Assembly (NCBI GenBank): GCA_949300485.1
Contig: CASGEL010000005.1
Span: 88,453 to 152,452 of the forward strand
Length of the DNA stretch: 64,000 nucleotides
Source: an uncultured bacterium
GTDB taxonomy: Bacteria > Cyanobacteriota > Vampirovibrionia > Gastranaerophilales > Gastranaerophilaceae
Direction of reading: 5' to 3'
This document shows positions 5,510 through 61,369 of this stretch, piece after piece. The position numbers and the translations under genes are program-made. The number at the start of each line of letters is the position of its first letter. Within the stretch, counting starts at the first letter, position 1. The notes below the pieces were generated by a model that saw only the letters and a program-made list of their open reading frames with translations, ran no database searches and was not told the origin of the DNA.

Positions 5510-7288
5510 ATGACAAATTCAATTCCAAAAATTGAATCTAATAAGGTTAATTCATTTGGAAATGTTACCTTTAAGAAAAATCCAAATGGATATTGGCTTA
5601 CTGTTCAAAATTCTGCACCTGATACGGTTACACTTGATAGTGAAAAAAAGAATGATTCCGAAAATAATGATATAAAATTAAAGATTATTACACCAGATGA
5701 AGCAAGACAAACAAATAATACAAGGCTTATAGGTATTTCTATTGCAAGTGTTACCGTTTTAACTGCCGCAGGTTTATTTTTCTTGTTAAAAGGTGGGACA
5801 AAGGGCTTATCTAAGAATTTTCAAAGATTAAGAGACTTCTTTGATAGAAAAGCTCAGTCTTCAAAATTAGAAAATTCTGGAGAAATCTCTCCGTTAAATA
5901 GAATTTATATATATTTGGTAAAGGGATTAGATTATTTTCTTAAAAATTTTGAAGCAGTAAATAATTTTGCAACTATAAAAGATTTGGCATTTAAGGAATT
6001 AATGTTTAATAAATTTACTGGGAAGTATACAGGACCTATTCATGATGCTATTACAAGAATGTTTGAGAAAATAGGTCGACAATCAGTAGTAAATTGTTAT
6101 AAAAATACTCTTGCCAGAATGAAGACAACTTCAGCTTTAGCAGGTGAAGCTTCAGAATCTGTTATGAGGGGTAATTCTTATGAAATAGTTGAGATAAATG
6201 GAATTAGGAAAACTAAAGCTCAATGGTTATCTCAGGTAAATGAAATGAATAAACAGCTTTCTGAAAATTATGATAAGTATTTTAGTGAAAAACCTTTACA
6301 GGTGAGATATTATAAATTCAAGAAATCAGTAGAAGGTTTGAAGTCAATTTTTGCTAATTGGAAAGTTTTTTGGTCAAAGGATTTGTGGAGAACATTTTTA
6401 GCTGAATCTGCAGTTGTAAAAGAAAAAACGGCAATTCAAAAGATTGTTCATGCAAACAGACAAGAACTTTCATATTCATTGTTGGATATGGCAAAAGATT
6501 CTGAAGAAGCGATTATGAAGATGACAGAGTTAATCAGTTATAAAGATGTAGATAAAATAAGCAGGCTTCGTAATATCAGGGCTAATATAAAAAGGTATGC
6601 AAAGAATCCTAACGATTTAGAGTTAAGAGGCAAAATTCTTAAAGATATAGATTCCTTATCTGATAAAATCTGGAAATCTATTCCTGATAAGACTATGGAT
6701 AGTACAGTTGCTAATGATTTATTGGTGAATCTTGCTGATTTAAAGGATAAGTTTTTATATTTTAAACAAGGTCAGGTAGAAGATATTTTAGATATATATA
6801 AACGAATTTTGCCTGCTGATGAATATAGAAATATTGAAAAGGCTTATAAATCTACAATTAAATCTTTGGATAAGTCAATAAGAATTGAAACAGAAGAATT
6901 TGTAAGTAAGCTTAGGGATTTAGTGTTGGGTTCTGCTCCGACTGATATTTTGACAATTTTGGGTTCTTTAGGAGTATTGGGTTATCAATTAGGCAAATCT
7001 GATGATAAAGATCAAAGATTATCTATTTCCTTAAAATATGGTATTCCAGCCTTAGCCGGTATCGGAATTTCTCTGTATTGTAATGCTAAATTATATGCAG
7101 GTACAAAATCTTTGATTATAGGTACAGTTTCTTCGTTAGTAGTTAATAAGATAGGAGTTTGGGCAGATCATTTGTTAAAGAAATATAGAGAAAATCAAAA
7201 ATCACAAGCCAATATAAATGTTCAGCAGGAGATAAAGTCTTTCTCTCCTGCTGGATTTGTTACTCAAAATCCTCCAAAAACTGTATAG
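5510..7288 (+). CDS. Hypothetical membrane protein with the recurrent N-terminal module
   Basis: 592 aa. N-terminus MTNSIPKIESNKVNSFGNVTFKK. TM helix LIGISIASVTVLTAAGLFFLL, long helical region, then 3 C-terminal hydrophobic segments. No family recognised. Confidence 0.7.
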   Translation: MTNSIPKIESNKVNSFGNVTFKKNPNGYWLTVQNSAPDTVTLDSEKKNDSENNDIKLKIITPDEARQTNNTRLIGISIASVTVLTAAGLFFLLKGGTKGLSKNFQRLRDFFDRKAQSSKLENSGEISPLNRIYIYLVKGLDYFLKNFEAVNNFATIKDLAFKELMFNKFTGKYTGPIHDAITRMFEKIGRQSVVNCYKNTLARMKTTSALAGEASESVMRGNSYEIVEINGIRKTKAQWLSQVNEMNKQLSENYDKYFSEKPLQVRYYKFKKSVEGLKSIFANWKVFWSKDLWRTFLAESAVVKEKTAIQKIVHANRQELSYSLLDMAKDSEEAIMKMTELISYKDVDKISRLRNIRANIKRYAKNPNDLELRGKILKDIDSLSDKIWKSIPDKTMDSTVANDLLVNLADLKDKFLYFKQGQVEDILDIYKRILPADEYRNIEKAYKSTIKSLDKSIRIETEEFVSKLRDLVLGSAPTDILTILGSLGVLGYQLGKSDDKDQRLSISLKYGIPALAGIGISLYCNAKLYAGTKSLIIGTVSSLVVNKIGVWADHLLKKYRENQKSQANINVQQEIKSFSPAGFVTQNPPKTV

Positions 7289-7332
7289 TTTTATTCTGAA
7301 TTTCTGTTAAAATCACAACAGAGGGGAGAATT

Positions 7333-8361
7333 ATGTCTACATTAACCGTAAAAGAAAAGATTGAGAAAAGAGAACTGGAATATTTAAGTGAATTTGCTAC
7401 TAAATCTGTTAATACAAAAGGAAGAAAAGTTTATGAGGAGCCTTCCGATTTAAGAACAGAATTTCAGCGTGACAGGGATAGAATTCTTCATTCAAAGGCT
7501 TTTAGACGTTTGAAGCATAAGACGCAAGTATTTTTATCTCCTTTTGATGATCATTTTAGAACTCGTTTGACTCATACCCTTGAGGTTTCTCAAATTGGAA
7601 GAACAATAGCAAGGGCATTAGATCTTAATGAAGATTTGGTTGAGGCTATATCATTAGGGCATGATTTAGGTCATACTCCTTTTGGACATTGTGGTGAAGG
7701 TGTATTGAATGAACTTGTAGAAGGAGGGTTTCATCATAATTTACAAAGTGTAAGGGTCGTTGAAGTTTTAGAAAATTTAAACTTATGTCAAGAAACAATT
7801 GACGGTATAAGGACTCATTCGTGGGGTTTTGAACCGACTACGCCGGAGGGAAAAGTTGTTCAATTAGCGGATAAAATTGCTTATATAAATCATGATATTG
7901 AAGATTCAATAAGAGCTGGAGTTATATCTGAAAGTGACCTTCCTAAGGATTGCATTCAATATTTTTCTTCTAATCAAAGTAAAAGATTAAATAAAATGAT
8001 TTCTGAGATTGTGAATAATTCGATAGGAAAACCAGAAATTTCAATGAGTGATGAAGCTTGGGGGTATACAACTAAACTCAGAGCCTGGATGTTTGAACAT
8101 GTTTATGATGATGAGTCTATGGCAAAATTAGAAGAATCTAAAGCAAAAAGGGTTATTAAAGAATTATTTTATTTATATGTAAACATGTTAAAGCCCGTTT
8201 GTCCGCCTGAACGTATAATAAGAGTTGTTACGGACTACATTTCGGGTATGACAGATAGGTATGCTGTTGAACGTTTTAAAGATAATTTTATTCCTGTAGG
8301 GATAAAATGTAGCGCAAGAGATGACTTCTTGTTTAAATTAGCGGCAAATCCAATAGATTAA
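7333..8361 (+). CDS. dGTP triphosphohydrolase-like HD-domain protein
   Basis: FQRDRDRILHSKAFRRLKHKTQVF, HTLEVSQIGR and GHDLGHTPFGH motifs. GGGGAG RBS. Confidence 0.9.
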   Translation: MSTLTVKEKIEKRELEYLSEFATKSVNTKGRKVYEEPSDLRTEFQRDRDRILHSKAFRRLKHKTQVFLSPFDDHFRTRLTHTLEVSQIGRTIARALDLNEDLVEAISLGHDLGHTPFGHCGEGVLNELVEGGFHHNLQSVRVVEVLENLNLCQETIDGIRTHSWGFEPTTPEGKVVQLADKIAYINHDIEDSIRAGVISESDLPKDCIQYFSSNQSKRLNKMISEIVNNSIGKPEISMSDEAWGYTTKLRAWMFEHVYDDESMAKLEESKAKRVIKELFYLYVNMLKPVCPPERIIRVVTDYISGMTDRYAVERFKDNFIPVGIKCSARDDFLFKLAANPID

Positions 8362-8379
8362 GCTGGAAAGAGTTGTATT

Positions 8380-9258
8380 ATGGATGATATACAATATATA
8401 TCAGAATATTTAGAATATCTTGAGATAGAAAAAGGTCTTTCAGTAAATACGTCAGAGGCATACAGGCGAGATCTAACTTCTTTTGTCGATTTTTGTGTGC
8501 AAAAAGGTGTTTCGCAGATAAAAAATATAAAAAGAAATGATTTAAATTCTTTCATTTTAGATCTTAGAGAAAGACACTACGCTCCTTCTAGTGTAACAAG
8601 AAAAATAGCATCATTACGTGGTTTTTTTAAATGGTTCTGTGCAAATGAATATGGTACAAGTAATCCTGCTCAGACTTTGGAATTGCCTAAACTTCCAAAG
8701 AGATTGCCAAAAGTTATGACTGTTGAAGAGTTGAATTCTATACTTAATTCTGATTTAAGTACGGAAGAAAGTTTAATTGTGGAATTGTTGTATGGCTGTG
8801 GACTTAGAGTATCTGAGCTTGTAAATTTAAAGCTTAATAATATTGATGTTAATTCAAAATATATCCAGTGTTATGGTAAGGGGTCAAAAGAACGGATTGT
8901 TCCGTTTGGAGAAAAAGCAAAATCTGCTTTGAAAAAATATTTAAAATACAGAGATATTCTTATATTGCAACATCACATTCCTGATACAAAAATTTTGTTT
9001 ATAAAATCTGATGGAAAACAAATTTCAAGGCAGGATGTATATAATTTTATCAAAAAGCAGGGAGAAAAAATTCATAAGCATATTTCTCCGCATACACTAA
9101 GACACAGTTTTGCTACTCATTTATTGGAAAATGGTGCGGATTTAAGAGTTGTTCAGGAACTTCTAGGACATAGTGATGTTTCAACAACTCAATTATATAC
9201 GCATATTACAAAGAAACGATTGAAAGAAGTTTATTTTGCAATAAACAATAGCTCGTGA
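8380..9258 (+). CDS. xerD: Tyrosine site-specific recombinase, XerC/XerD type
   Basis: N-terminal SAM-like domain (YLEIEKGLSVNTSEAYRRDL). Catalytic region with GLRVSEL, HTLRHSFATHLLENGADLRVVQELLGHSDVSTTQLYTH. Confidence 0.85.
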   Translation: MDDIQYISEYLEYLEIEKGLSVNTSEAYRRDLTSFVDFCVQKGVSQIKNIKRNDLNSFILDLRERHYAPSSVTRKIASLRGFFKWFCANEYGTSNPAQTLELPKLPKRLPKVMTVEELNSILNSDLSTEESLIVELLYGCGLRVSELVNLKLNNIDVNSKYIQCYGKGSKERIVPFGEKAKSALKKYLKYRDILILQHHIPDTKILFIKSDGKQISRQDVYNFIKKQGEKIHKHISPHTLRHSFATHLLENGADLRVVQELLGHSDVSTTQLYTHITKKRLKEVYFAINNSS

Positions 9259-9990: not shown

Positions 9991-10012
9991 CTGGATATAC
10001 ATGTAATCGACA

Positions 10013-10041
10013 AAGGTTCCGATTATTACAGTCGGAACCTT
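10013..10041. terminator. Hairpin between convergent genes
   Basis: aaggttccga / tcggaacctt, a 10-bp stem with a 9-nt loop. Sits between the 9265-9990(+) and 10074-10460(-) stops. T-rich flank on the + side. Confidence 0.5.
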
Positions 10042-10073
10042 GTATAGTATTTATTTATAATAATTAATATATA

Positions 10074-10460
10074 TTAGCTTAGAGCCATTAAAGCTTTTAC
10101 AGAACGTGCGTTTTCTTTAACTTCTTCATCAAAACCTTCTGAAGAAATAGTATTATCAAGGACTTTCATTGCCTCTTCTTTGTTTTCTAAAGATAACAAT
10201 TCATTGATAGTACTCATTGCAACGACTGTTGACATATCATTAATACCTTTGCCTCTGTTAGCAATAACTACATGTAATGAATTAGGTTCATTTCTTTTAA
10301 CCAAGGCTCTTGAGGTTAATTCTCTAACTTCATCTATTGAAGAATTAGTGCCGATTTCTTCCAATACTGCTACAGATTCAGGATTTGGATTAATAGTAAG
10401 TGATTCAATAATATTACTTACTTTGTTAAAATTTTTGTTATTTTTGATATTATTATCCAT
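10074..10460 (-). CDS. Hypothetical small helical-repeat protein (possibly HEAT-like)
   Basis: 128 aa, starting 10 nt downstream of the 10471-10995 stop (operon partner). GGAGG RBS on the minus strand. No enzyme motif. Confidence 0.6.
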   Translation of the reverse strand: MDNNIKNNKNFNKVSNIIESLTINPNPESVAVLEEIGTNSSIDEVRELTSRALVKRNEPNSLHVVIANRGKGINDMSTVVAMSTINELLSLENKEEAMKVLDNTISSEGFDEEVKENARSVKALMALS

Positions 10461-10470
10461 TTAGTCCTCC

Positions 10471-10995
10471 TTATGCAGCTGCCGCCATGTCTGCTTCAAG
10501 AGCAGCTAAACTTTCTGTAAACATAGGTTTGATCTCTGTATGAGGATCCATTTTTGCCATTTTTGAAATTTCTCTGTCTCGGCTGTTTACGAAGAATGAA
10601 GTGATATCTCTTGTTAAAACTTCTTTTGCTCCGTCAAGTGAAACCTCTTTATTTCCTATTTCGTTGATTTTGTTCCAAGCATGTACAATGCCGTCTTTCA
10701 TTTTCATACCAAATTCTTTGATAGCTTCGATACCTTCATAGAATTTGTTACCGAAATCTGTAAGTGATCCTACAAATGTTGAATAGATTCTTTTTGAGCT
10801 TGCAGTTAAATTACCGGTAAAGCTTACATCTTTTTTGTCATTTTTGTTACTTGATTCAAAAACATCTTCTGTTAAGATATTTTTTTGAAAATTTGATGCT
10901 GCAAAAGGGTTACTTGTTCTTGCAACGTTTTGTTCTGTTACGCTCGTATTAAATATACGATGGCTTAATTGATTAATTTTTTCGATTGCTGACAT
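10471..10995 (-). CDS. Hypothetical protein with the recurrent N-terminal module
   Basis: 174 aa. MSAIEKINQ start and DVSFTG at aa 56-61. AGAGG RBS. No signal peptide or TM. Confidence 0.65.
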   Translation of the reverse strand: MSAIEKINQLSHRIFNTSVTEQNVARTSNPFAASNFQKNILTEDVFESSNKNDKKDVSFTGNLTASSKRIYSTFVGSLTDFGNKFYEGIEAIKEFGMKMKDGIVHAWNKINEIGNKEVSLDGAKEVLTRDITSFFVNSRDREISKMAKMDPHTEIKPMFTESLAALEADMAAAA

Positions 10996-11091
10996 ATATT
11001 AAACCTCTTTCTGGATTATCCACGTACCTAGTCTATCATAGTGTGTAGATTTTAAATCCACCTTTTGAATGATTTGTGTTAAAATACTAAT

Positions 11092-11865
11092 ATGAATTAT
11101 AAAAATCTGGAAGAATTAATAGAGGTTATACGCAGATTGAGGGCTCCTGGCGGGTGTCCCTGGGATAGGGAGCAGACTCATTCTTCTCTTCGCCCGAATA
11201 TGATTGAAGAAGCTTATGAAGCTGTAGATGCGATTGATGATAATGATATGCCGCATTTGCGAGAGGAACTTGGCGATGTTTTATTACAGGTTTTACTTCA
11301 CTCCCAAATTGCAAAAGAGGAAGGCGAATTTGATATTGAGGATGTTGCAAAAGAATTAAAAGATAAATTAATTCATCGTCATCCGCATGTTTTTGGAAAT
11401 GCAAAAATAGATACTCCTGATGGTGTTGTTGATGCTTGGGATAAATTAAAGGCTGAAGAAAAAAAACACAGAAAATCTGCTATGGATGGAATTTCAAGAA
11501 GTCAGGCCGCTTTGATTTCTGCTCAGAAAATATCTAAAAAGGCTGTAAAAACGGGTTTTGAATGGCCAGATGAAGAATCTTTGTATGATTGTATATATTC
11601 TGAATTTGAAGAATTTAAGCAGGCTGAACAAGATGGTGATAGAGCCCATATGGAAGAAGAGTTCGGAGATATTTTATTTGCTACGGTCAATCTTGCAAGA
11701 TGGAATAAAATTGATGCTGAGCAAGCTTTATTAAAAGCAAATAAAAAGTTTGAAAAGCGATTCAGAAAGATGGAAGAATTAGCAGTAAAACCTTTAAATG
11801 AATATTCGTTTGAAGAATTTGATGCTTTGTGGAAAAAGGCAAAAAAGGAAATATCTAGTAATTAA
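11092..11865 (+). CDS. mazG: Nucleoside triphosphate pyrophosphohydrolase MazG
   Basis: LRAPGGCPWDREQTHSSL and two EExxE/D-type MazG repeats (EEAYEAVDAI, EEFGDILFA). Confidence 0.9.
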   Translation: MNYKNLEELIEVIRRLRAPGGCPWDREQTHSSLRPNMIEEAYEAVDAIDDNDMPHLREELGDVLLQVLLHSQIAKEEGEFDIEDVAKELKDKLIHRHPHVFGNAKIDTPDGVVDAWDKLKAEEKKHRKSAMDGISRSQAALISAQKISKKAVKTGFEWPDEESLYDCIYSEFEEFKQAEQDGDRAHMEEEFGDILFATVNLARWNKIDAEQALLKANKKFEKRFRKMEELAVKPLNEYSFEEFDALWKKAKKEISSN

Positions 11866-11884: not shown

Positions 11885-12676
11885 ATGAAAGATGTGCAAA
11901 ATACTCAGGATACAAGAAATGTTGATATTCAAAAAGTAGGAATAAAACATATAGAATTACCGCTTATAATTCAGCGAAAAAATAAATCTGACAAAGTAGT
12001 TTATGCTAAAGCTAGGGCTTGCGTTTCATTGCCTAGGGATTATAAAGGAACTCATATGAGTAGATTTGTTGAGGTCCTTAACGAGTGGCGTACGAAAAAC
12101 CTTTTAGGTGTTGATATTAAAGGCTGTTTAGAAAAGATTATAAAAAGGTTACATGCTCAAAGCGGTGAATTAGAGTTTGATTTTAAATATTTTGTTGATA
12201 AAAAAGCTCCGATAACAGGCTTTTCAGCTCCAATGTGCTATGATTGCTCGTTTGAAGGAATTATTGATAAGGATAGTTACAAATTTATACTGGGGGTAAA
12301 GGTTCCGGTAACTACTCTGTGTCCTTGCTCAAAAGAAATTTCTGATAACGGCGCACACAATCAACGTGCCATAATTTCAGTGAAGGTTTCTTATGATGAT
12401 AATGAACATGTTTGGCTTGAAGATTTGATTGAATTGATTGAAGCTTGCGCGTCTTGTCCTGTTTATCCGCTTCTAAAACGTCAAGATGAAAAATTTGTGA
12501 CAGAACATGCCTGGGATAATCCAAGATTTGTAGAAGATGTATTAAGAGAGGTTGTGGTGAAACTTCGCAGTAATTCTGTTATTAAATCTTTTGAGGTTGA
12601 TTGCGAGGCAATGGAGAGTATTCATAATCATTCTGCCTGGGCTTATCAAAAAGAATTCAAGGGTATTGATTATTAA
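11885..12676 (+). CDS. folE2: GTP cyclohydrolase I type 2 (FolE2/MptA family)
   Basis: Start moved to the internal ATG (M30 of the track ORF) to avoid a 68-nt overlap with mazG. DIQKVGIKHIELPL and GTHMSRF motifs. Confidence 0.85.
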   Translation: MKDVQNTQDTRNVDIQKVGIKHIELPLIIQRKNKSDKVVYAKARACVSLPRDYKGTHMSRFVEVLNEWRTKNLLGVDIKGCLEKIIKRLHAQSGELEFDFKYFVDKKAPITGFSAPMCYDCSFEGIIDKDSYKFILGVKVPVTTLCPCSKEISDNGAHNQRAIISVKVSYDDNEHVWLEDLIELIEACASCPVYPLLKRQDEKFVTEHAWDNPRFVEDVLREVVVKLRSNSVIKSFEVDCEAMESIHNHSAWAYQKEFKGIDY

Positions 12677-14025
12677 ATAATCCCTTCCATCATGTCATTC
12701 AATGCAAGTTTTGCTGTTCTAATCGGTGTTGAAAAGCTTGTGCCGCTTAGTGTTTCTATCGGTATATTATATTCACCTCTAATATTTACAAGTTCTCCTG
12801 CTGCGGATAAGATTTTTCTTTTCCTTTTTGCATAAATTGATATTTTTTCTTCTAAAATACTTCTTTTTTGTAAAAGACTTTTAAAAGATTCTTTTGATTT
12901 AAACAGAGCATATTTTTCTTGTTCTAAATATTTTATTCTGTTATTTAAGTCTTTTATAATATTTTGAATTCTGTCAACTGGTTTGCCTAATAAAGGATTT
13001 TTAAGGTATTTTTCAAAACGAGTGTTTAATAATGGAATATCAGTTCCTGGCAGTCCTGTTATATTAATCCCGAATTTTGTAAGTTTAGGGGTAAATTCTC
13101 CAAGCTCATAATGTTGTGTAAGTTCGGAATTTCTTGATATTGAAAATGGGGCTACTTTACCCCTTTTTTCGCATAACGAACCTACTCCTTCAACTTTATC
13201 ATTTGCACAAAGGTAAAAGTTTGCTAATTCAGATGAATTATTATATTCTCTGTAACTTGCATTGTTTGCAGCAAATATAATTCTGCGATTACCGGATATT
13301 AGTTTATCGTAAATAGTACTTTCCGACTGTAATAGTTTCTTTAAATCTGTTGGTATTTTGAATTTCTTTTTTGCATCTACTTTCAGGCCGTATGAGCATG
13401 ATATATAATCTGCAGTTCCTTGTTCCTCCAAATATTGAACTATTTTTGCAAGATCTTCATGTGTTTCTAATTCCCTATTGGTAACTGATAATCTTACATA
13501 CTTTGCAAACGGATTATTTCGTCTGGCATATGTTAATACAAGATCTCCATGTGTTATTCTGTAAAAAGGAAGAATTTCACTATAGTTATCAGGTATTAAA
13601 ATTGTTTTCGGGGTAAGTTTTGCATTTTTGATGAACCCTCCTTCTCTATCAAGAATTTTTACCAAAATTTTCCCGTCTTCTGTTTCTCCTTCTTTTAATA
13701 TGTTATAGATTTTCCCGTCTTTGGGGTTTGTCCATTCTGCACGAGCAAAGGAATCTCCAATAGTTTCAGAGGTTAATCTTTTTAAATCTTCTGCTGATGC
13801 TTTGGAATATTCTCGTACAATCGGATTTTTGGATTGATGAACAGCTATTTTGTTCATTGCCCTTGCCTGTAGCATTTCAACAGAACAAAATCTCGGTAAT
13901 TCAACAGTTTTTCCTGTGTTATGATCTATAGCTACGGGATTTATTCCATGGATATCTTCAGGTTTGATATTTAATTCACGCAAATATTTTATTACTTTTT
14001 GGCTTAGATGTGAACTTATATTCAT
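12673..14025 (-). CDS. Divergent subtilisin-like (S8) serine peptidase with a coiled-coil insertion and no signal peptide
   Basis: Motifs occur in subtilase order: ILIPDNY (Asp), ITHGDLV (His), ISCSYGL, IIFAANNAS (oxyanion Asn), LSGTSFSTPIRTAKLAL (Ser). About 100 aa of Lys/Glu-rich helix is inserted before the Ser motif. Confidence 0.5.
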   Translation of the reverse strand: MNISSHLSQKVIKYLRELNIKPEDIHGINPVAIDHNTGKTVELPRFCSVEMLQARAMNKIAVHQSKNPIVREYSKASAEDLKRLTSETIGDSFARAEWTNPKDGKIYNILKEGETEDGKILVKILDREGGFIKNAKLTPKTILIPDNYSEILPFYRITHGDLVLTYARRNNPFAKYVRLSVTNRELETHEDLAKIVQYLEEQGTADYISCSYGLKVDAKKKFKIPTDLKKLLQSESTIYDKLISGNRRIIFAANNASYREYNNSSELANFYLCANDKVEGVGSLCEKRGKVAPFSISRNSELTQHYELGEFTPKLTKFGINITGLPGTDIPLLNTRFEKYLKNPLLGKPVDRIQNIIKDLNNRIKYLEQEKYALFKSKESFKSLLQKRSILEEKISIYAKRKRKILSAAGELVNIRGEYNIPIETLSGTSFSTPIRTAKLALNDMMEGII

Positions 14026-14037
14026 TATTAACTCTTT

Positions 14038-14544
14038 CTATAAAGGAATAGATACACCAATGTTTACACTTGTTGTTGATGGATCAATTTTACTTACATC
14101 ATAGATTTGTCCTTCAACAAATACGTTTGCTTTGCCTATTTTGGTCGAAATCCCTGTAAAGTTTCCAACTGTTGTGGAGGCACCGTTTTTCCCGTAAGTT
14201 ACTTTTGTTGCAACATAAGGTGTTGTATAAATACTTGTTTTGTTGCTTATCGGCAGTGTGACTGTACATGGCTGAACTCTAAACTGTACAGATTTTGAAT
14301 TAGGATTTAGGTTGTGTCTTACCCGAAATCCTCCAGAAAAAGCCGAATTTCCGTAAGGCATTGAACCTTTTACATCAATAACGGCCCCTGTTGAACCGTC
14401 CGTAAATGATGTACCAACACCAGCATAGCCACCCAAGCTTCCTTTCCCTATATTTACCCCTGCATCGATCCCTGCAGTTGAAAAGTTTGTACCGTCGCAT
14501 TGTTGAAATGTCCATGCTGAAACCTTTGTGTTAATTCCAGGCAT
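14038..14544 (-). CDS. Gly/Thr/Ser/Asn-rich beta-type hypothetical protein
   Basis: 168 aa with no signal peptide, GGGGAAA RBS. Its stop is 12 nt upstream of the S8-like gene start, in the same orientation. Confidence 0.6.
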   Translation of the reverse strand: MPGINTKVSAWTFQQCDGTNFSTAGIDAGVNIGKGSLGGYAGVGTSFTDGSTGAVIDVKGSMPYGNSAFSGGFRVRHNLNPNSKSVQFRVQPCTVTLPISNKTSIYTTPYVATKVTYGKNGASTTVGNFTGISTKIGKANVFVEGQIYDVSKIDPSTTSVNIGVSIPL

Positions 14545-14689: not shown

Positions 14690-15178
14690 ATGAAAGTTCA
14701 AAATATATGTTTTACCGGAGTTCCGGATAATTATGCAAAAATAGATAACTATGTATCACGTTCTGCCCAGCCAAAAAAGGATGATTTTCTATGGCTTAAA
14801 AATAACGGGGTAACAGATATTGTTAATTTTAGAACAATGACTGTTCCTGATCTTGATTTTGATGAAGCTGAATTAGTAAAGTCTTTGGGGATGAAGTATC
14901 ATAATATACCATCTGTTTCCAAGTATCCGCAAGAAAAAAATGTTTTTGATTTTCTTTCTTTGGCAGATGAAATATCATCTAAAAATGGTAAACTTCATAT
15001 ACATTGTAAACAAGGCGCAGACAGAACCGGCATGTATTCGTATATTTATAAATCATACAAGCATATCGGTTTGGAGTCTGAAAATATTGCAGAATGGATT
15101 GCCAAAGGGCTGCATTTAGAAAAATACCCGGATTTGATAGGCTGGGCTCAAAATTTTGTTAAAAATTATTTGAAGTAG
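14690..15178 (+). CDS. Cys-X5-Arg protein tyrosine / dual-specificity phosphatase
   Basis: HIHCKQGADRTGMY P-loop (HCxxGxxRT), preceded by a DIVNFR-type segment. N-terminus MKVQNICFTG. Confidence 0.8.
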   Translation: MKVQNICFTGVPDNYAKIDNYVSRSAQPKKDDFLWLKNNGVTDIVNFRTMTVPDLDFDEAELVKSLGMKYHNIPSVSKYPQEKNVFDFLSLADEISSKNGKLHIHCKQGADRTGMYSYIYKSYKHIGLESENIAEWIAKGLHLEKYPDLIGWAQNFVKNYLK

Positions 15179-15186
15179 TATTTATA

Positions 15187-16914
15187 TTATTCTGCAAGCA
15201 ATTTGTCTGCAAGTTCAGTTTCAAGAGTTCCGTTAAGAGCTTTTGAAACTTTTTGAAGCTTTTGGGCAATAAGTTCCATATTATCTGTCCAAACAAAGTT
15301 GTTATTTACATATTCTTCAGCCTTGTTAAAATCTCCGTCAATTTGAATACGTATAATTTCAGCCAGCATTTCTTTTGCAATCGGAACAACTTTATCTATA
15401 TTTACATGGATTTTGCCTTCCTGGGTAATGGAATATCCGCCTCTTTCTGCGAAGTATTTATTTTGCATTACTGTACGAACTCTATGAGCTTGAGAGAGGG
15501 TAGGCTTTGATTTTAGAAAATTATCCGCCATTGTTGTAACTATAATTTGAAGTCTCTGTTCTTGGGTGTACATACCAAGCTCTGTCAACAGGTCAACAAA
15601 TGCTAAAGCTCCCATATCTGCTTTGTTTTCTTCTATAATATTTCTGTATTTGCCGAGTTTTTCGCTGCTTTCTTTTGGTCCTAAAGAGTGTGCATTTTCA
15701 TGACCGATTGTAAACCAGTGATCAGCCTCGTCAAGATAATATTTGTGCTGTTCAGGATCTAATATTGCATCAAGTCTTTCCTGTAACTTTTTCATATCAC
15801 TGATAAATCTTATTTGTCTATGGTAAACATTACGTCTTCCGCCGCCTATTGTAAGTGATAATTTATCGGAATTCGGAAGATTTTCAGCTAATGTTATACC
15901 CCCCCTGTATTCTCCTACATCGCCTGAGGCCATTACCATATCAACATCAACCATTGTTTGTTTTGCATCTTCATCTGATGAAATTGTTTGTTCATACTCA
16001 TCTTTATATGGCATATTATCAGCAAGTGTTGGTAAATACTGCTTTATTGCCATCAAAGCATCTGTACCTTTTTTGTTTATAATACCTACTCTGCCGCCTA
16101 AAAAGTCTTTAGGAATAGGTGAAATTCCATGTTCTTTAAGTATTGCTGATAATTCTTCATTTTCAACAATAGTTCCTGTCATTTCATCTTCATAATTTTC
16201 TCTGGTAATAGTAAATTCAAGCGGGGTATCCTGCAAGGTTGCCCATTTTTTATCCGCATAAGCATCAAGCATCGGATCAGCTGTTCTTAATGCTTTTGCC
16301 TGAAGTTGTAAAAATTCGTTAAAGTCAGAATTTGTTGAAACTTCAGAAGCTTTATCGAGTTCGTCTGCCATTTGGGTAAAATCTTCTTTAAAATAATCAA
16401 TATAATCGATTCCTTTTAGTTCATCTCCGTCACGTTCTACTATTGAACGTTGAGTCAGGATATTTTTGACTTTATCGATTTTTCCTTCTTTTAACATTTT
16501 GGTAAGGATTGAATGAAATTCTTCTTTGGATAAGTCTTCAGGGTATACACCTTTTCCAGGTTTTTCTTCTATACCTTTGATTAATCTTATATGATTTGAC
16601 ATAGTATCAATAGCATTTACACCTTTTTGTGCATCAAATAAAATTTTTGTTAATCTTGCCTGTTCATTTCCTTTTTTAACTTCTTCTTCTAAAAATTCTT
16701 TAACTTCAAGATTATGTTTGCAGTCTATCTGCATATTTATTCTTTCTAAAATGTCTGCAGCTTTACACAAATGTTTAAGTGCCTTTTTATCGCCGTCTTC
16801 TAAAGATAAGTATTCAGGCGCATCGGCTTTTAAGAATTTTTTTGTTATTAAGTAATCTTTATTAGTTCTTTTTTCAAGTTCTTCCATAGAAAGATTGAAT
16901 TCAAATGTTTTCAT
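15187..16914 (-). CDS. M49 (dipeptidyl-peptidase III)-like zinc hydrolase, paralog 1, without N-terminal extension
   Basis: GHENAHSLGP (HExxH) followed by IIEENKADMGAL (EExKAD second zinc motif). 575 aa. Confidence 0.6.
   Translation of the reverse strand: MKTFEFNLSMEELEKRTNKDYLITKKFLKADAPEYLSLEDGDKKALKHLCKAADILERINMQIDCKHNLEVKEFLEEEVKKGNEQARLTKILFDAQKGVNAIDTMSNHIRLIKGIEEKPGKGVYPEDLSKEEFHSILTKMLKEGKIDKVKNILTQRSIVERDGDELKGIDYIDYFKEDFTQMADELDKASEVSTNSDFNEFLQLQAKALRTADPMLDAYADKKWATLQDTPLEFTITRENYEDEMTGTIVENEELSAILKEHGISPIPKDFLGGRVGIINKKGTDALMAIKQYLPTLADNMPYKDEYEQTISSDEDAKQTMVDVDMVMASGDVGEYRGGITLAENLPNSDKLSLTIGGGRRNVYHRQIRFISDMKKLQERLDAILDPEQHKYYLDEADHWFTIGHENAHSLGPKESSEKLGKYRNIIEENKADMGALAFVDLLTELGMYTQEQRLQIIVTTMADNFLKSKPTLSQAHRVRTVMQNKYFAERGGYSITQEGKIHVNIDKVVPIAKEMLAEIIRIQIDGDFNKAEEYVNNNFVWTDNMELIAQKLQKVSKALNGTLETELADKLLAE
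16185..16293 (-). repeat. High-identity core segment shared with 18002-18110
   Basis: By hand alignment, 109 nt with about 11 mismatches. Encodes the identical peptide DPMLDAYADKKWATLQDTPLEFTITRENYED in both paralogs. Confidence 0.8.
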
Positions 16915-17012
16915 TATAAAGCTCCTTTTATATCTGTAATTATAAAAGCATTATATCACTTTAGGGGTAAATATACAATAAAGTTTAAACGAGTAGCAGA
17001 TCGCTGCCAAGT

Positions 17013-18893
17013 TTATTGTTTAGTTTTTAGATAGTCAGCTAATGGTGTTTTAACTTCTCCGTTTAGTTTTTCGGAGGACTTTTGCAGGATATCTGATACA
17101 TATTGCATATCATCTGTCCAGATGAAGTTTTTTTCTACATAATCTTTAGCTGCTTTGTAATCTCCGTCTAGCTGAATTTTGATAATTTCTTTTAGCATTT
17201 TTTTGCAGGTTGGAATAACTTTATATGTATGTATATATATTTTTCCGTTATTTAGGATTTCATAAACTCCGTTATCTTTCAGGTATTTACACTGCATAAC
17301 TTGTCTTACCCTATGGGCGACAGACATATCAGGCTTGGCTGATAAAAAATTCTGCATTACAAAAGTAGTCAGAATTCCTTTTCTTTCTTCGTCTGTATAC
17401 ATTCCAAGTTCTGTCAGTTTATCAATAAATGATATTGCCGCAACATCAGCTTTATTTTCTTCAAGAATGTTTCGGTATTCTCCTAATTTTGCTTCATTTT
17501 TATGGGGGCCGAGTGTATGTGCATTTTCATGACCTACTGTAAAATGGTGGCTGGCCTCTTTTGTAATATATTTACTTTGTTCAGGGGTAAGTAATTTTTT
17601 GTAGTTTTCCAATATAAGAGCTTTATTTTCTCTCATTTGTCTGTGGTAAACATTACGTCTGCCGCCGCCAATTGAAAAAGACAGTTTATCCGGGTTTGGA
17701 AGATTTTCTGCAATTGTAATTTTGCCACGATATTCTCCTACTGCACCTGCTACATCTACAAGGTCAACATCAACCATTGTTTGTTTATTATTATTTGTTA
17801 TAATTTGTTCGTATTCATTATTGTATGGCATAAGTTTTGCCAATTCCGGAAGATATTCTTTTGATTTTAGCAAATATTCTGTGCCCTGTTTATTTATAAT
17901 TCCTACTCTCCCACCTAAAAAATCTTTTGAAACAGGGGTGATTCTGTGTTCGTTTAATGCATTTATTAATTTTTTATTTTTAAAAATTGTTTGAGTCATT
18001 TTATCTTCGTAATTTTCTCTGGTAATAGTAAATTCAAGCGGAGTGTCCTGTAATGTTGCCCATTTTTTATCGGCATAAGCATCAAGCATTGGATCTGCTG
18101 TTTTTAGTGCCGCAGCCTGTAATACTAAATAGTCATTAAAATCTTCATTTGTTGAGGTTAAAGATGCTTTTATTAATTCATCTGCAGCTTTTGTGAATTC
18201 TTTTTTAAATCTGTCAGCATAATCTATGCCTTTTAATTCATTTCCGTTTCGAATAACAACCGTTCTTTGGCTGAGAATTTTTTTTATTTCTTCGATTTTC
18301 CCTTCTTCAAGCATTTTGAATAGTATATTATGAAATTCTTCAGTAGATAAATCTCGAGGATATACCCCTCTGCCCGGAGATTGCTGCAATCCTTTGGCAA
18401 GAGATATTTCTTCCATTTTATTGTCTTTTGAAAAAATTCCTTTTTGACCATTAAAAAGTCGCATCGCAGCTTTTGCATCCGGATTGCCTTTGAGAATTTC
18501 TTTATTTAGATAATTTCGGAAAGGTATATTGTTTTCATCATCCAGCTGCAATTCTGCTTCTCCGATATAATATGCAGCTTTTACAAGGTGTTTTAGCGCC
18601 TGTTTATCTCCGGGTTTTAGATTTATGTATTCTTCAGAGTCGGGTGTTAATAGTGTTATTGTAGCGATTTTGTTTGAATTGCTTCTCTGTTTTAATTCGT
18701 CTGAAGATAATCCTAATTCATAATGTTTTCCTTTAAAAGAAATTGCATTTAATGCAGATAAGTTATTTAGTTGGTTGAGGATTACTGTATTATTATTTTT
18801 TGTAATATTTTGATTTTTGTATTGAAATTTATTAGGAATACTGTACTTATGATTATTTTGAATATAGCTTTGATTAATCTTTGATATTTGCAT
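17013..18893 (-). CDS. M49 (DPP III)-like zinc hydrolase, paralog 2, with a 55-aa N-terminal module
   Basis: GHENAHTLGP and ILEENKADVAAI. Collinear with paralog 1 from aa 58 onward. Extra N-terminus runs from MQISKINQSYIQNNHKYSIPNKFQYKNQ to AISFKG. Confidence 0.6.
   Translation of the reverse strand: MQISKINQSYIQNNHKYSIPNKFQYKNQNITKNNNTVILNQLNNLSALNAISFKGKHYELGLSSDELKQRSNSNKIATITLLTPDSEEYINLKPGDKQALKHLVKAAYYIGEAELQLDDENNIPFRNYLNKEILKGNPDAKAAMRLFNGQKGIFSKDNKMEEISLAKGLQQSPGRGVYPRDLSTEEFHNILFKMLEEGKIEEIKKILSQRTVVIRNGNELKGIDYADRFKKEFTKAADELIKASLTSTNEDFNDYLVLQAAALKTADPMLDAYADKKWATLQDTPLEFTITRENYEDKMTQTIFKNKKLINALNEHRITPVSKDFLGGRVGIINKQGTEYLLKSKEYLPELAKLMPYNNEYEQIITNNNKQTMVDVDLVDVAGAVGEYRGKITIAENLPNPDKLSFSIGGGRRNVYHRQMRENKALILENYKKLLTPEQSKYITKEASHHFTVGHENAHTLGPHKNEAKLGEYRNILEENKADVAAISFIDKLTELGMYTDEERKGILTTFVMQNFLSAKPDMSVAHRVRQVMQCKYLKDNGVYEILNNGKIYIHTYKVIPTCKKMLKEIIKIQLDGDYKAAKDYVEKNFIWTDDMQYVSDILQKSSEKLNGEVKTPLADYLKTKQ
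18002..18110 (-). repeat. High-identity core segment shared with 16185-16293
   Basis: See the partner segment. Synonymous sites are also conserved, unlike the rest of the two genes. Confidence 0.8.
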
Positions 18894-18952
18894 TTAAACT
18901 CCTTTAACGTTTTATAAATCTTATAAATATATTTTTTGCTATGTGTTTTTTA

Positions 18953-33429: not shown

Positions 33430-33978
33430 TTATACCCCCGTTTTCATAAGAAAAAACAAATAGATCTTTCCCCAGGTGTTTGGCGGAGTTACCCCGTTTG
33501 TGTCAACAAAGAATTCTATATATGTGCCGCTTAGTCTTTCGTTTTGATCTGTTGCTTTCCACCAGACAGCCGTTCCGTTAAGCAGTACTATTTTATAATA
33601 TCTGTTATCTGTTGCATAGTTTATATCGTGCTTTTGTCCGTTTTTTCGTAAATATGTTTTTTTGATACAGTAATTGTTGGAGTCAGATACTCCGCAATCT
33701 GTTGCAATTTTAAGGGAATATTTTAATTTTTCTGCAATATCTTCTGCTCCTTTTGCGGACCAGTATTCTGTTGTCCAGCTTGAGGCATCACCGTATTCAT
33801 CTTCACTCATTCTTATTGCCTGCGCAATTATAGATTGTGTTTCTTTTAATTGGTTTACAGTTCTTTTTTCATAGTATCTTGTCATAAGATTGGGGATAGT
33901 CATAGCCGCAACAATTCCTATAATACCAAGAGTTATAAGAACTTCGGCAAGAGTGAATGCTTGTTGTGATATTTTCAT
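33430..33978 (-). CDS. Prepilin-type N-terminal cleavage/methylation domain protein (type IV pilin or pseudopilin-like)
   Basis: MKISQQAFTLAEVLITLGIIGIVAAMTIPNL is a class III signal with Glu at +5. Confidence 0.8.
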   Translation of the reverse strand: MKISQQAFTLAEVLITLGIIGIVAAMTIPNLMTRYYEKRTVNQLKETQSIIAQAIRMSEDEYGDASSWTTEYWSAKGAEDIAEKLKYSLKIATDCGVSDSNNYCIKKTYLRKNGQKHDINYATDNRYYKIVLLNGTAVWWKATDQNERLSGTYIEFFVDTNGVTPPNTWGKIYLFFLMKTGV

Positions 33979-51883: not shown

Positions 51884-53213
51884 AATTTTTAAATTTTCCC
51901 AAAATAAGTTAAATTATTTATATGAAAATAGTTTGTTTTTACAAAATATTGACTGGTTTATCCTGCCATTTATTTTGTTGACCTTTATAGCATCAACAGT
52001 AATGAATTCGGATGCTATCGGATTCTTTGCATTGATAGTAATGTTTTTAACGGTTGTTAAGATGCTTACAAAACCAGGTGAATTGATTAGTTTGAGGCAT
52101 TTTGAAGTCTGGATTGTTGCATATTTTATGATTGTTGTTATAAGTTTATTCGGTTCAACTTTATTTACCCTTAGTTTAAAAGGCTTTTTCAAGACATTTG
52201 TATATGTTGGTTTTTATTTTTCTGTTGCTCAGTATTTAAAAAACAATAAGGATAAAATAGTTTGGCTTTTGGCAGTCATTGGCTTATGTGTGGCAGGTGA
52301 ATCCGTAGTCGGATTTTTGCAAAGCTTTTTACATTTAGATGCGATTTCAACCTGGCAGGATACTTCTCATTTAAATCCTGAAGATGTCCTATCCAGAGTA
52401 TACGGAACCTTGAAACCTCTTAACCCAAATCTTTTCGGAGGTTATTTGGTTTGCGGTTTTCCTGTAATTTTAGGATCTGTATTTTATTTTGTTAATAAGA
52501 AGTATTTTAAATGTGCAATTGCAGCATTATTATTTACTCTTTGGGGGATATATACAATATTCCAAACCGGTTGCAGGGGTGCGTATTTGGCTTTGATGTT
52601 AATTTTTGGCTGTACATTTTTACTTTCTGCAAAATTTTTCTGGAAAACTTATAAAAAATTATATATTTCACTTATAGCTGCGGTATTTGCTTTGTTTATA
52701 GGTGCATTAACTTTTGTTAGTTCTTTAAGGCACAGGTTTTTATCTATTTTTGCTATGAGGAACGATTCTTCCAATTCGTTCAGATTTAATGTGTATCATT
52801 CTTCTATTGAAATGTTTAAGGATAATTGGCTGTTAGGAATTGGTGTTGGTAATAAAAATTTCAGAGAAATATATGGTTTGTATATGAAAACTGGTTTTGA
52901 TGCATTGAGTGCTTATAATATTTATCTTGAAACAGCTGTTGAAAGTGGTATTTTTGCATTAATTGCATTTTTAGGTTTTTTAATTACCGTATCTATTGAT
53001 GCTGTTAGATATATTATGCACTCAAATAACAAAGATTATATAATCTTTGTCGCAATATCAATAATTTCGGTTTGGGCTGTAATGTTTCATGGTTTGGTAG
53101 ATACAATTTATTTCAGACCGCAGCTTCAATTTATGTTTTGGACATTTATTGCAATAATAGCAACAGTGCTAACAGAAAATAATTCTAGCAATAAAAACCA
53201 GGTCGATGAGTAG
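51870..53213 (+). CDS. O-antigen ligase (Wzy_C) family polytopic membrane protein
   Basis: About 10 TM segments. QTGCRGAYLALMLIFG segment and a large loop typical of the WaaL/O-antigen polymerase family. Confidence 0.65.
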   Translation: MMFNRIFKFSQNKLNYLYENSLFLQNIDWFILPFILLTFIASTVMNSDAIGFFALIVMFLTVVKMLTKPGELISLRHFEVWIVAYFMIVVISLFGSTLFTLSLKGFFKTFVYVGFYFSVAQYLKNNKDKIVWLLAVIGLCVAGESVVGFLQSFLHLDAISTWQDTSHLNPEDVLSRVYGTLKPLNPNLFGGYLVCGFPVILGSVFYFVNKKYFKCAIAALLFTLWGIYTIFQTGCRGAYLALMLIFGCTFLLSAKFFWKTYKKLYISLIAAVFALFIGALTFVSSLRHRFLSIFAMRNDSSNSFRFNVYHSSIEMFKDNWLLGIGVGNKNFREIYGLYMKTGFDALSAYNIYLETAVESGIFALIAFLGFLITVSIDAVRYIMHSNNKDYIIFVAISIISVWAVMFHGLVDTIYFRPQLQFMFWTFIAIIATVLTENNSSNKNQVDE

Positions 53214-53634
53214 TAGTTGATGATATGGATATGCTACCTCCAAATGGCATATAAGGCATCATTCCGAAGCCTCCAAAACCCATACCCATACTGCCCCAGA
53301 AACCCATTGGTGGAGGACAGAACATATAGCTTGGGCAATTAAAGAACATCCAAGGAGAGCAGGCTCCCATTAATCCCAGAGTCCCAACTGTATTAGATAC
53401 AGGATTTCCGTATCCTGCATACATATTTATTGTGTTACCTACGGGGTTTCCGAATTTTTGCATTTCATATGCAACTTCGTTTCTGGCCATTCCGTTCATA
53501 AGGTTACCGATTAAGTTTCCGCCAGCATATGCACCTGAAACCCCCATACTTTTTTGTTGCAAAAAGGTTACGGCTGAAGCCAGTCCGCAATTTATATTGC
53601 TTAAAACTCTCATGTTCTCGGCGTAACCCATCAT
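53185..53634 (-). CDS. Gly/Met/Pro/Phe-rich low-complexity hypothetical protein
   Basis: AAGGAGA RBS. C-terminal part PPPMGFWGSMGMGFGGFGMMPYMPFGG. 3' end overlaps the convergent ligase gene by 29 nt. Confidence 0.5.
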   Translation of the reverse strand: MMGYAENMRVLSNINCGLASAVTFLQQKSMGVSGAYAGGNLIGNLMNGMARNEVAYEMQKFGNPVGNTINMYAGYGNPVSNTVGTLGLMGACSPWMFFNCPSYMFCPPPMGFWGSMGMGFGGFGMMPYMPFGGSISISSTTTHRPGFYC

Positions 53635-60649: not shown

Positions 60650-61369
60650 ATGATTATTAACAGTATTTCTTTAGGTCAGAATCATCCATATAGTTCAAAT
60701 CAAAAATTTGGAACTGCACCCTCTTTTACATCCGTTCATCCTGCGGTGTATTTCGTAAAAGGTACAGATGGTAAGTTTCATCAGGTTTCTTCTGCAGATA
60801 TTATTAAAACTCTTCAAAGGAAAATAGTCGGATGGTTAAACAAGCCGTATAATGATTCTGCGGCTATTAAAAAAGGCAAAAAGCCTAAGGTTTCTAAGTC
60901 TGAATCGCCTGAAGAGAAATCAATAAGGGATAGATTAGTACGATTTTTTTATAATAATGATCCTGATTATGCAAAAAGACCTTTTGTAAGATCTTTTTAT
61001 ACAAAAAATAATAACGGAAGATTGTATTCTTTTATATTGTCAGGACAGTCTTCTGAGTTAGTCGAGGCTGCGGCTAAACCGATAGGACAGGCTCGAGGTG
61101 TTATAAAAGCTAAAAAAGATAATATAACTAAAAATTTTGGAATAGATGAATATAGAGCAAAGAATTATGTGCCGAGGGAAGATGTCAGGGAGCTTGCAGA
61201 GGCGTCTAAAAACTATCATGAAGATGCAGTTAAAGTGATAAAAACTCTCTTATCTCAAAATAGACCTCGCGATATGAGGTTTGAAGCTTATTTTGTTCCT
61301 TATACGAAAGGTAAGGAAGTTAAATATCAGCTTGCGGATGCTTGTTTAAAAAGAGAAGTAAGATTATAA
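60650..61369 (+). CDS. Hypothetical basic protein with the recurrent N-terminal module
   Basis: Start set at the ATG after GGGG (M10 of the track ORF). MIINSISLGQNHPYSSNQKFGTAPSFTS. No family recognised. Confidence 0.55.
   Translation: MIINSISLGQNHPYSSNQKFGTAPSFTSVHPAVYFVKGTDGKFHQVSSADIIKTLQRKIVGWLNKPYNDSAAIKKGKKPKVSKSESPEEKSIRDRLVRFFYNNDPDYAKRPFVRSFYTKNNNGRLYSFILSGQSSELVEAAAKPIGQARGVIKAKKDNITKNFGIDEYRAKNYVPREDVRELAEASKNYHEDAVKVIKTLLSQNRPRDMRFEAYFVPYTKGKEVKYQLADACLKREVRL

Follow-up and report, generated by a model that had tools for sequence, protein, structure and literature searches.

What purpose is served by a 55-residue N-terminal block that distinguishes one of two adjacent, collinear enzymes from the other? 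This question is raised by a 64,000-nucleotide stretch of DNA, hereafter the window, from an uncultured bacterium of the Gastranaerophilaceae (Cyanobacteriota; Vampirovibrionia; Gastranaerophilales), which spans positions 88,453 to 152,452 of contig CASGEL010000005.1 (forward strand; assembly GCA_949300485.1). Two genes on its minus strand encode a leaderless paralog, P1, and a leader-bearing paralog, P2. We classify both as new members of a known family, the short HExxH-type M49 (DPP III-like) zinc peptidases, and find that the leader of P2 fits none of the signal classes tested. We propose that this leader serves as a portable sorting or recognition signal specific to the lineage, sending P2 where P1 is not sent, a reading that we favour at a probability somewhat short of even.

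A tandem pair of predicted M49 peptidases

The genes, their motifs and their translation signals are as follows (coordinates are those of the window).

15187-16914, minus strand: P1, leaderless paralog, 575 aa, open reading frame (ORF) starting MKTFEFNLSMEELEKRT
15616-15633, minus strand: EENKAD motif of P1
15688-15702, minus strand: HENAH motif of P1
16915-17012, minus strand: P2-P1 spacer of 98 nt, with the P1 Shine-Dalgarno sequence AAGGAG (16927-16922) and a -10-like TGATATAAT
17013-18893, minus strand: P2, leader-bearing paralog, 626 aa, ORF starting MQISKINQSY...ISFKGKHYELGLSSDELKQRS
17445-17462, minus strand: second M49 motif of P2, EENKAD, residues 478-483
17517-17531, minus strand: zinc-binding/catalytic motif of P2, HENAH, residues 455-459
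18899-18905, minus strand: P2 Shine-Dalgarno sequence AAAGGAG, 5 nt upstream of the ATG at 18893 (sequence reading)

A first-pass annotation of this DNA had described adjacent, collinear minus-strand paralogs that share four motifs, and had called them M49-like. Both descriptions are borne out. The ORFs lie as stated, BLASTP aligns P1 with P2 at 326/571 identities (57%, E = 0) with only two gaps of 2 residues each, and GHENAH(S/T)LGP, EENKAD, GGGRRNVYHRQ and LGGRVGIINK are each present in P1 and P2. Neither protein has a Pfam-A or NCBIfam match at E <= 0.01. A phmmer search of the PDB, however, matches P1 to 6eom_A (E 3.4e-30) and 5zum_A (1e-12), and the AlphaFold2 model of P2 (mean predicted local distance difference test, pLDDT, 88.7) matches the same two structures in Foldseek (6eom, E 4e-28, target-normalised TM 0.84; 5zum, E 9e-27, target-normalised TM 0.89), along with human and yeast DPP3 (E 1e-13 to 1e-17). 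Since the curated profiles are silent, it is these PDB sequence matches and the predicted fold that place P1 and P2 among the short HExxH-type M49 peptidases.

The HENAH motif of P2 pairs with HEISH of 6EOM. Its H455, E456 and H459 are invariant across 47 family members, as are all six residues of EENKAD. The EExR/KAE/D motif of M49 enzymes supplies the third zinc ligand. Because the metal-binding and catalytic residues are kept in both paralogs, P1 and P2 are both probably active peptidases. HExxH paired with EExKAD is the signature of the short bacterial M49 branch (PMC5805324, PMC9820243), and EEAKAD is the second motif in the HExxH-type DPP III of Corallococcus and plants (PMC9820243).

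The closest characterised comparisons are CaDPP III of Caldithrix abyssi (6EOM) and CoDPP III of Corallococcus (5ZUM), which resemble P1 and P2 in their two-lobe fold of ~550 residues, in the pentapeptide HExxH that replaces HExxGH, and in the EExKAD second motif, although they share just 19-24% identity with the pair. They also differ at the N-terminus. CaDPP III and CoDPP III have predicted Sec signal peptides (residues 1-18 and 1-22, respectively) and CoDPP III was identified in culture supernatant as an extracellular protein (PMC5805324, PMC9820243). P1, unlike these enzymes, lacks any N-terminal signal, and P2 has a hydrophilic, acid-free leader of 55 residues in the very position where they have a hydrophobic signal peptide.

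The 55-residue leader of P2

Lysine 56 of P2 pairs with lysine 2 of P1 in the BLASTP alignment, which agrees with the first-pass delimitation of the extra block as P2 residues 1-55 (nt 18729-18893), ending at SFKG; the last residues of the block are ISFKG. We conclude from the sequence that this extension is obligatorily translated, because a strong Shine-Dalgarno sequence serves the start at 18893 and codons 2-56 hold no in-frame ATG, GTG or TTG. The next in-frame methionine is at about residue 144, well into the sequence shared with P1. At the leader/core boundary there is a Shine-Dalgarno-like AAAGGA (18734-18729) followed by an ATG (18721-18719), which is out of frame and meets a stop after two codons. 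A scan for promoter-like and terminator-like sites around P1 and P2 found none above shuffled sequence.

The leader consists of two conserved elements and the linker between them.

18873-18893, minus strand: element 1, codons 1-7, MQISKIN, family-wide M-x-I/V-x-K-I/V-(N/T/S)
18786-18872, minus strand: linker, codons 8-36, acid-free, rich in N/Q/S/T/K/Y, unconserved and variable in length
18729-18785, minus strand: element 2, codons 37-55, VILNQLNNLSALNAISFKG, a predicted amphipathic helix L-x3-L-N-x-L-A-x-L-N followed by the F-motif I-S-F-K-G

Among 59 non-identical M49 leaders, element 1 is conserved column by column (M in 57/59, I/V at position 3 in 59/59, K at position 5 in 45/59, I/V at position 6 in 56/59), the linker comprises ~30-40 positions rich in N/Q/S/T/K/Y with not one conserved column, and element 2 has the consensus L-x3-L-(N/E)-x-(L/M)-A-x-(L/I)-N-(K/N)-x-(S/T)-F-x-G. 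The core opens with Y-E-L-G-L-S directly after F-x-G. In P2 itself, the leader has no acidic residue, 6 lysines and 19 asparagines and glutamines, and an isoelectric point (pI) of 10.1. A hidden Markov model (HMM) of element 2 detects all P2 orthologs at E 1e-7 to 1e-9, and above noise it detects M49 orthologs only.

The same division is seen in the substitution pattern. Between P2 and its closest relative (L024, one of the related loci designated here by L numbers; 95% protein identity), the ratio of nonsynonymous to synonymous differences per site (pN/pS) is 0.07 for the core, 0.11 for the pooled leader ends and 0.89 for the linker, where there is also one in-frame codon indel. These values come from a simple Nei-Gojobori count of small numbers, and they agree with the multi-species pattern. 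We conclude from these alignments that the two ends of the leader are under purifying selection and that its middle is nearly neutral.

Residues 1-55 are predicted to be disordered: AlphaFold2 gives this block pLDDT values of ~30-50, against >90 in the core. More finely, pLDDT is ~30 over residues 1-33 and ~50 over a helix at residues 34-49, and it exceeds 90 from residue ~60 onwards. The first-pass view of the block as a separable add-on outside the catalytic fold is likewise supported by the alignments and the model, as 6EOM and 5ZUM align with the core alone, P1 and many orthologs are leaderless, and the same leader layout is present on unrelated folds (see below).

Distribution and evolution of the leader

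More than 5000 database proteins match the pair at E <= 1e-10, and the named sources and a genome scan place them in metagenome-assembled genomes (MAGs) of Candidatus Gastranaerophilales / Melainabacteria. The gene order mscS-rlmH-P2(leader)-P1(leaderless) is kept in seven species-level genomes (L001-L007). The claim that P2 alone carries the extra block thus holds for the window and these seven genomes; it does not hold more widely, since there are P1-type genes with a leader and single-copy genomes in either state. Orthologous loci do vary in the presence of the extension: a lone P1-type gene fills the same syntenic slot in L009, L011, L012 and L014, and it has a leader in L009 but not in the other three.

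Across L001-L007, P1 is 78-91% and P2 60-76% identical to the window copy, and P2 diverges at 1.8-2.9 times the rate of P1 over the same genome pairs. In an M49 tree rooted on the leaderless outgroups L017, L015 and L016, the P2 clade has long branches and all its members bear leaders. Branches in the P1 clade are short; its basal lineages lack the leader, which is present in two subclades nested within it. The homology of P1-type to P2-type leaders is clear (compare NIDRSDALMKELNIMANRNNISFKG with NIDKSELLMAQLNNISAINNITFTG). The distribution of the leader on this rooted tree requires 3 or more gains or transfers, or 5 or more losses.

One leader-bearing subclade of P1-type proteins (P0047, P0051 and relatives, 634 aa) has a methionine at the leader/core junction (…ISFERKSNMREFELNLS), the point at which its leaderless sisters begin MREFELNLS. 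Judged by these sequences, alternative initiation could give both forms from one gene, and the leader could be lost in this subclade by a simple shift of the start. Beyond the Gastranaerophilales, we observed the leaderless M49 form alone. Two Endomicrobiaceae MAGs (L008 and L010, match at 9998-11725) carry P1-type M49 genes without a leader, at 76-78% identity to window P1. These Elusimicrobiota (Candidatus Ruminimicrobiellum) genes have no shared synteny and are nested in the Gastranaerophilales P1 clade, a placement that suggests horizontal transfer between gut lineages or mis-binning.

The pair resembles known enzyme pairs that differ by a targeting peptide, one copy bearing a Sec signal and the other being cytosolic. 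As in such pairs, the cores are collinear, the N-terminal block ends at the start of the fold and is labile, and the copy that bears it evolves faster; in contrast to them, the block of P2 fits no recognised signal class. It is plausible, as the first-pass annotation had it, that P1 is the resident and P2 the re-targeted copy of the enzyme. The cores also differ in charge, with a pI of 5.1 for P1 (15187-16914) and 8.1 for P2 (17013-18727); the median is 6.2 (range 5.0-8.3) for the P2 clade and ~5.2-5.4 for P1-type proteins.

The same leader layout on unrelated families

P2 and three further, unrelated families in the window share a layout of M-x-I/V-x-x-I/V, an acid-poor polar linker and (S/T/N)-F-x-(G/S), after which the fold begins. 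The first gene below is a candidate short-form carrier.

14690-15178, plus strand: PTP/DSP-like phosphatase, candidate short-form carrier, starting MKVQNICFTG, with Pfam Tc-R-P/PTP matches
54595-56007, minus strand: 470-aa family with no known domain, leader residues 1-63 (nt 55819-56007) MLISKIQ ... NVSFLGG
60650-61369, plus strand: 239-aa family, from the ATG at 60650, leader at about residues 1-28 (nt 60650-60733) MIINSIS ... APSFTS
61364-62017, minus strand: GNAT acetyltransferase, 217 aa, leader residues 1-14 (nt 61976-62017) MQINNIQSTNTFTS, Pfam GNAT from residue 79

In the 470-aa family (~90 homologs), the leader reads M-x-I/V-x-x-I/V-(Q/N), a variable spacer of 25-62 residues, and V/I-S/N-F-L/T-G-(G/N), with I/V at positions 3 and 6 in 76/79 leaders and the F-motif exactly 20 residues ahead of the FFKKLL core. 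The 239-aa family, whose start at 60650 is preceded by a G-run Shine-Dalgarno sequence, has M-x-I/V-x-x-I/V, 11-19 variable residues and P-S-F-(T/G)-(S/A)-(V/I)-H-P in its 11 homologs. All 53 GNAT cluster representatives (53/53) have M-x-I/V, 0-20 residues and F-(G/T)-S-(K/R)-N-x-P; F12, S14 and P18 are the sole invariant columns of the entire protein, and the model has pLDDT 51 over residues 1-10 and 83 over residues 11-20, with the domain beginning at residue 22. The phosphatase is a candidate only: its orthologs (n=4) have M-x-V-x-Q-I-S-F-Q-G-x-P at the N-terminus, and the motif MKVQQISFQG might simply form the opening strand of the PFA-DSP fold. Further candidate carriers are a 707-aa protein in L009 and a 517-aa protein in L011. 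The 707-aa, 470-aa and 239-aa proteins have no Pfam or PDB match.

Across the families, leaders contain 3-6% D+E, compared with 10-11% in background N-termini, and 37-42% N+Q+S+T, compared with 23%. A loose regular expression finds the F-motif within the first 70 residues of 27/326 ORFs and in 5/255 interior windows. Judged from the alignments, the strong evidence for a shared leader is its conservation within families together with its constant position at the start of the fold.

What might the leader do?

Our proposal that the leader is a sorting signal draws on its being a predicted disordered tether with two constrained motifs and a sequence-free spacer, and on its precise junction with four folds, its evolutionary lability, and the predicted Sec signals that relatives have at the same position. 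In this proposal, a shared cellular machinery would bind both short motifs. P2 would be directed elsewhere, with export from the cytoplasm by a route other than Sec the most likely case, and P1 would be the cytosolic copy. The leader might be removed after F-x-G, giving a mature P2 that starts where P1 starts. We infer each of these three elements, namely the targeting role, the extracytoplasmic destination and the cleavage.

The most concrete candidate for such a route would be the flagellar type III export gate, whose genes are retained by the order in mostly non-flagellated genomes (Soo 2014 PMC4040986; bioRxiv 10.64898/2026.04.24.720558). About 75% of Gastranaerophilales genomes keep just flhB, fliI, flgG and similar genes, 'postulated' for extracellular secretion (bioRxiv 10.64898/2026.04.24.720558). 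Early flagellar substrates have small non-polar residues 3-7 positions from the N-terminus and an F-containing gate-recognition motif, FxxxPhi, that lies 30 or more residues into the protein; the spacer between the two is at least 19-24 residues long and sequence-independent, as in Salmonella FlgD with 2-SIAV-5 and 36-FLTLL-40 (PMC8983047). The leaders are similar in having non-polar residues at positions 3-6 of a polar N-terminus, a free spacer and a downstream Phe motif, and in having no chaperone-like or hydrophobic segment. The small non-polar residues near the N-terminus are found in the M49 and 470-aa leaders, and the spacers of these two families (23-51 and 25-62 residues, respectively; median 45-50, minimum 23-25) fit the published length. 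A residue Phi at F+4 is frequent in the 470-aa family alone (I/V in 30/69); in M49 leaders, F+4 is mostly K or Q. The cargoes differ, in that leader cargoes are enzymes and flagellar cargoes are axial proteins, and flagellar signals, unlike the leaders, are usually not conserved in sequence. Our search of the window and ~426 kb of related DNA found no flagellar gene. By this analogy, the leader could be the export signal of the reduced type III gate kept in most Gastranaerophilales, which we regard as rather unlikely.

A number of results weigh against the leader being a sorting signal, and others against the type III route in particular. Against that route are the GNAT and 239-aa spacers (0-20 and 11-19 residues), which are shorter than the published minimum, and the leader motif itself, which is (S/T/N)-F-x-(G/S) and not FxxxPhi. 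A proposed likeness of the leader helix plus F-motif to the rod/hook signature ANNLAN..T.GF was tried with hhalign and rejected; the register was right, but the match was weak, at P = 0.04 and a probability of 1.3%. Against a sorting signal in general, the recognised export signals are missing from P2. There is no Sec h-region in its first 70 aa (maximum Kyte-Doolittle value over a 10-residue window 0.99, against 3.1-3.2 for two Sec-type controls from the window), and its first 40 residues contain no RR, no Cys and no h-region that would indicate a Tat or lipoprotein signal. Across families, likeness is confined to the two short end motifs: the amphipathic helix is judged M49-specific, because the full-length leader HMM, built from the 59 M49 leaders and run against all window ORFs, matched P2 alone, and the helix sub-HMM likewise detects M49 proteins alone. 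With orthologs collapsed, the F-motif enrichment is modest (13/164 vs 3/132, p = 0.027). The carrier genes have no common upstream DNA motif, and they are syntenic core genes and not effector islands. Core pI was rejected as a clue to localisation, the median for P1-type proteins being 5.24 with a leader and 5.41 without.

The carriers as a group have no RR, and their single Cys is in the phosphatase. The neighbourhoods of the 470-aa gene are housekeeping in character, with no secretion genes and no additional carriers.

Could the leader instead act within the cell? As an intracellular docking device, it would be a flexible tether whose linear motifs bind a cytoplasmic scaffold, chaperone, protease adaptor or membrane-associated complex, an explanation that we find possible if doubtful. 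A disordered tether with two conserved short motifs is what docking would call for, the carriers are conserved core genes in housekeeping neighbourhoods, and core charge is equal with and without the leader. The very short spacers of some families suit docking better than they suit a threading signal, and the GNAT F-motif segment, which contains the sole invariant residues, is modelled beside the domain with a pLDDT of ~83. However, the M49 leader lies exactly where relatives have Sec signal peptides, and in four folds the leader stops precisely where the domain begins, as cleavable or targeting leaders typically do. The leader of P2 terminates where P1 begins, which would suit a pro-peptide, in which residues 1-55 keep P2 inactive or aid its folding until cut after F-x-G, so that P1 and P2 form a constitutive/activatable pair. 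The helix adjoins the core, and the pair is syntenic in L001-L003 with a subtilase-like ORF (12673-14025) whose D, H, N and S are invariant and in the right order. Yet the end motifs also occur on GNAT and on two unknown folds, where inhibition of a peptidase makes no sense, the helix is M49-specific and of low confidence, and the subtilase assignment is weak (Pfam E = 0.17, no PDB match). To our knowledge, M49 enzymes are not known to use pro-peptides. We consider a pro-peptide decidedly unlikely.

It is also conceivable, although we judge it unlikely, that the leaders have no common function and represent a tolerated low-complexity tail, an A/T-rich codon preference after the start, and S-F-x-G by coincidence. 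The genome has a GC content of about 32% in the window and an N/K/I-rich composition, starts of the form M.[IV]..[IV] occur in 30/339 ORFs, including that of the plainly unrelated RlmH, the 174-aa family described below proved to be a superficial match, and the negative cross-family HMM search and the modest collapsed enrichment would be expected. Such tails would not, however, explain why pN/pS is so much lower at the leader ends than in the linker, why positions 3, 6, F and G are conserved between variable flanks in 50-90 diverged members per family (11 homologs for the 239-aa family), why F12, S14 and P18 are the sole invariant GNAT columns, or why the motif always adjoins the start of the fold.

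Processing by a prepilin peptidase is a further explanation, and one that we hold to be very improbable. In it, the short form M-K-V-Q-Q-I-S|F-x-G mimics MKISQQA|FTLAE and is cut before Phe. The window does contain a type IV pilin-like gene:

33430-33978, minus strand: type IV pilin-like gene, Ala at -1, MKISQQA|FTLAEVLITLGIIGIVAAM

This gene begins MKISQQAFTLAEV; its F occupies position 8, which is also where the phosphatase and the short GNAT forms have theirs, and short-form leaders share with prepilin leaders a brief basic N-terminus followed by Phe. Against this, the sequence after S-F-x-G in M49 leaders is polar, and carrier leaders have neither Glu+5 nor the hydrophobic alpha1-N segment, whereas the true pilin-like genes in the window and related loci have AFTLAE or GFTLAE followed by a hydrophobic helix. 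In addition, F lies at residues 47-61 in the long forms, and other pilin leaders in related loci do not have the M-x-I start; several pilin-like genes with differing leaders are present in these loci. Considering its sequence features, we conclude that the leader is none of the Sec, Tat, lipoprotein or prepilin signals.

Significance

Very little is known about the cell biology of the Gastranaerophilales, which are uncultured relatives of the cyanobacteria and widespread in the gut. If the leader is a sorting signal, then a new sorting class would be constituted by a non-Sec leader that can be recognised in sequence and is common to unrelated enzymes, namely a peptidase and an acetyltransferase, and to two or three unknown folds, and it would help to predict which proteins of the lineage share a destination. 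If, more specifically, it addresses the remnant type III system, then the first candidate substrates of that system would be P2, the 470-aa and 239-aa proteins, GNAT and perhaps the phosphatase. This would bear on the long-standing question of the cargo of reduced flagellar systems. It would also be a rare type III signal that can be read from sequence, with P1 and P2 as a built-in plus/minus control. P1, P2 and the natural single-copy variants provide a ready comparative experiment, with the leader delimited to the residue and a catalytic core that would function in its absence, and the pair adds a well-sampled clade (>5000 sequences) to a little-studied branch, the short HExxH M49 enzymes missed by Pfam and NCBIfam models.

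Neighbouring genes

The subtilase-like ORF at 12673-14025 (minus strand, 450 aa) has no family match and no signal peptide, and it is the gene noted above as syntenic with the M49 pair in L001-L003. Its invariant D146, H159-G160, N255 and G428-T-S430-x-x-T-P follow the order of the subtilase (S8) catalytic tetrad; Pfam Peptidase_S8 gives E = 0.17 and there is no PDB sequence match. It could be a divergent cytoplasmic subtilase and, speculatively, a candidate leader-processing protease.

Next to it is a 168-aa protein (14038-14544, minus strand) that is rich in Gly/Ser/Thr, apparently all-beta and without a family match, and which adjoins the M49/phosphatase cluster in L001-L005, L011 and L012. 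In the window, 9 nt separate the P1 end from the phosphatase stop; in L024, an extra 206-aa gene (6709-7329), with no Pfam match and absent from the window, lies between P1 and the phosphatase.

A 128-aa protein at 10074-10460 (minus strand), with no Pfam match, is 91-100% identical across genomes, compared with 55-90% for its neighbours, an unusually high degree of conservation. Upstream of its gene is that of a 174-aa protein (10471-10995, minus strand), MSAIEKINQ ... VSFTGNLTASSKR, which is superficially leader-like. The 174-aa family was rejected as a carrier, as its N-terminus is uniformly conserved and contains acidic residues, and SFTG is lost in L001.

Two observations concern the 470-aa family. 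A conserved protein of ~140 aa (53185-53634, minus strand; L019 6626-7036; L022 12383-12805) has no family match and always accompanies the 470-aa gene, at a remove of two or three genes; its C-terminus is extremely rich in Gly/Met/Asn/Pro/Phe (…MGFWGSMGMGFGGFGMMPYMPFGG…). Lastly, L007 encodes a leaderless 349-aa homolog of the 470-aa family (7512-8561, 25% identity) directly upstream of mscS-rlmH-P2-P1, and thus two leader-associated families occur in one neighbourhood.

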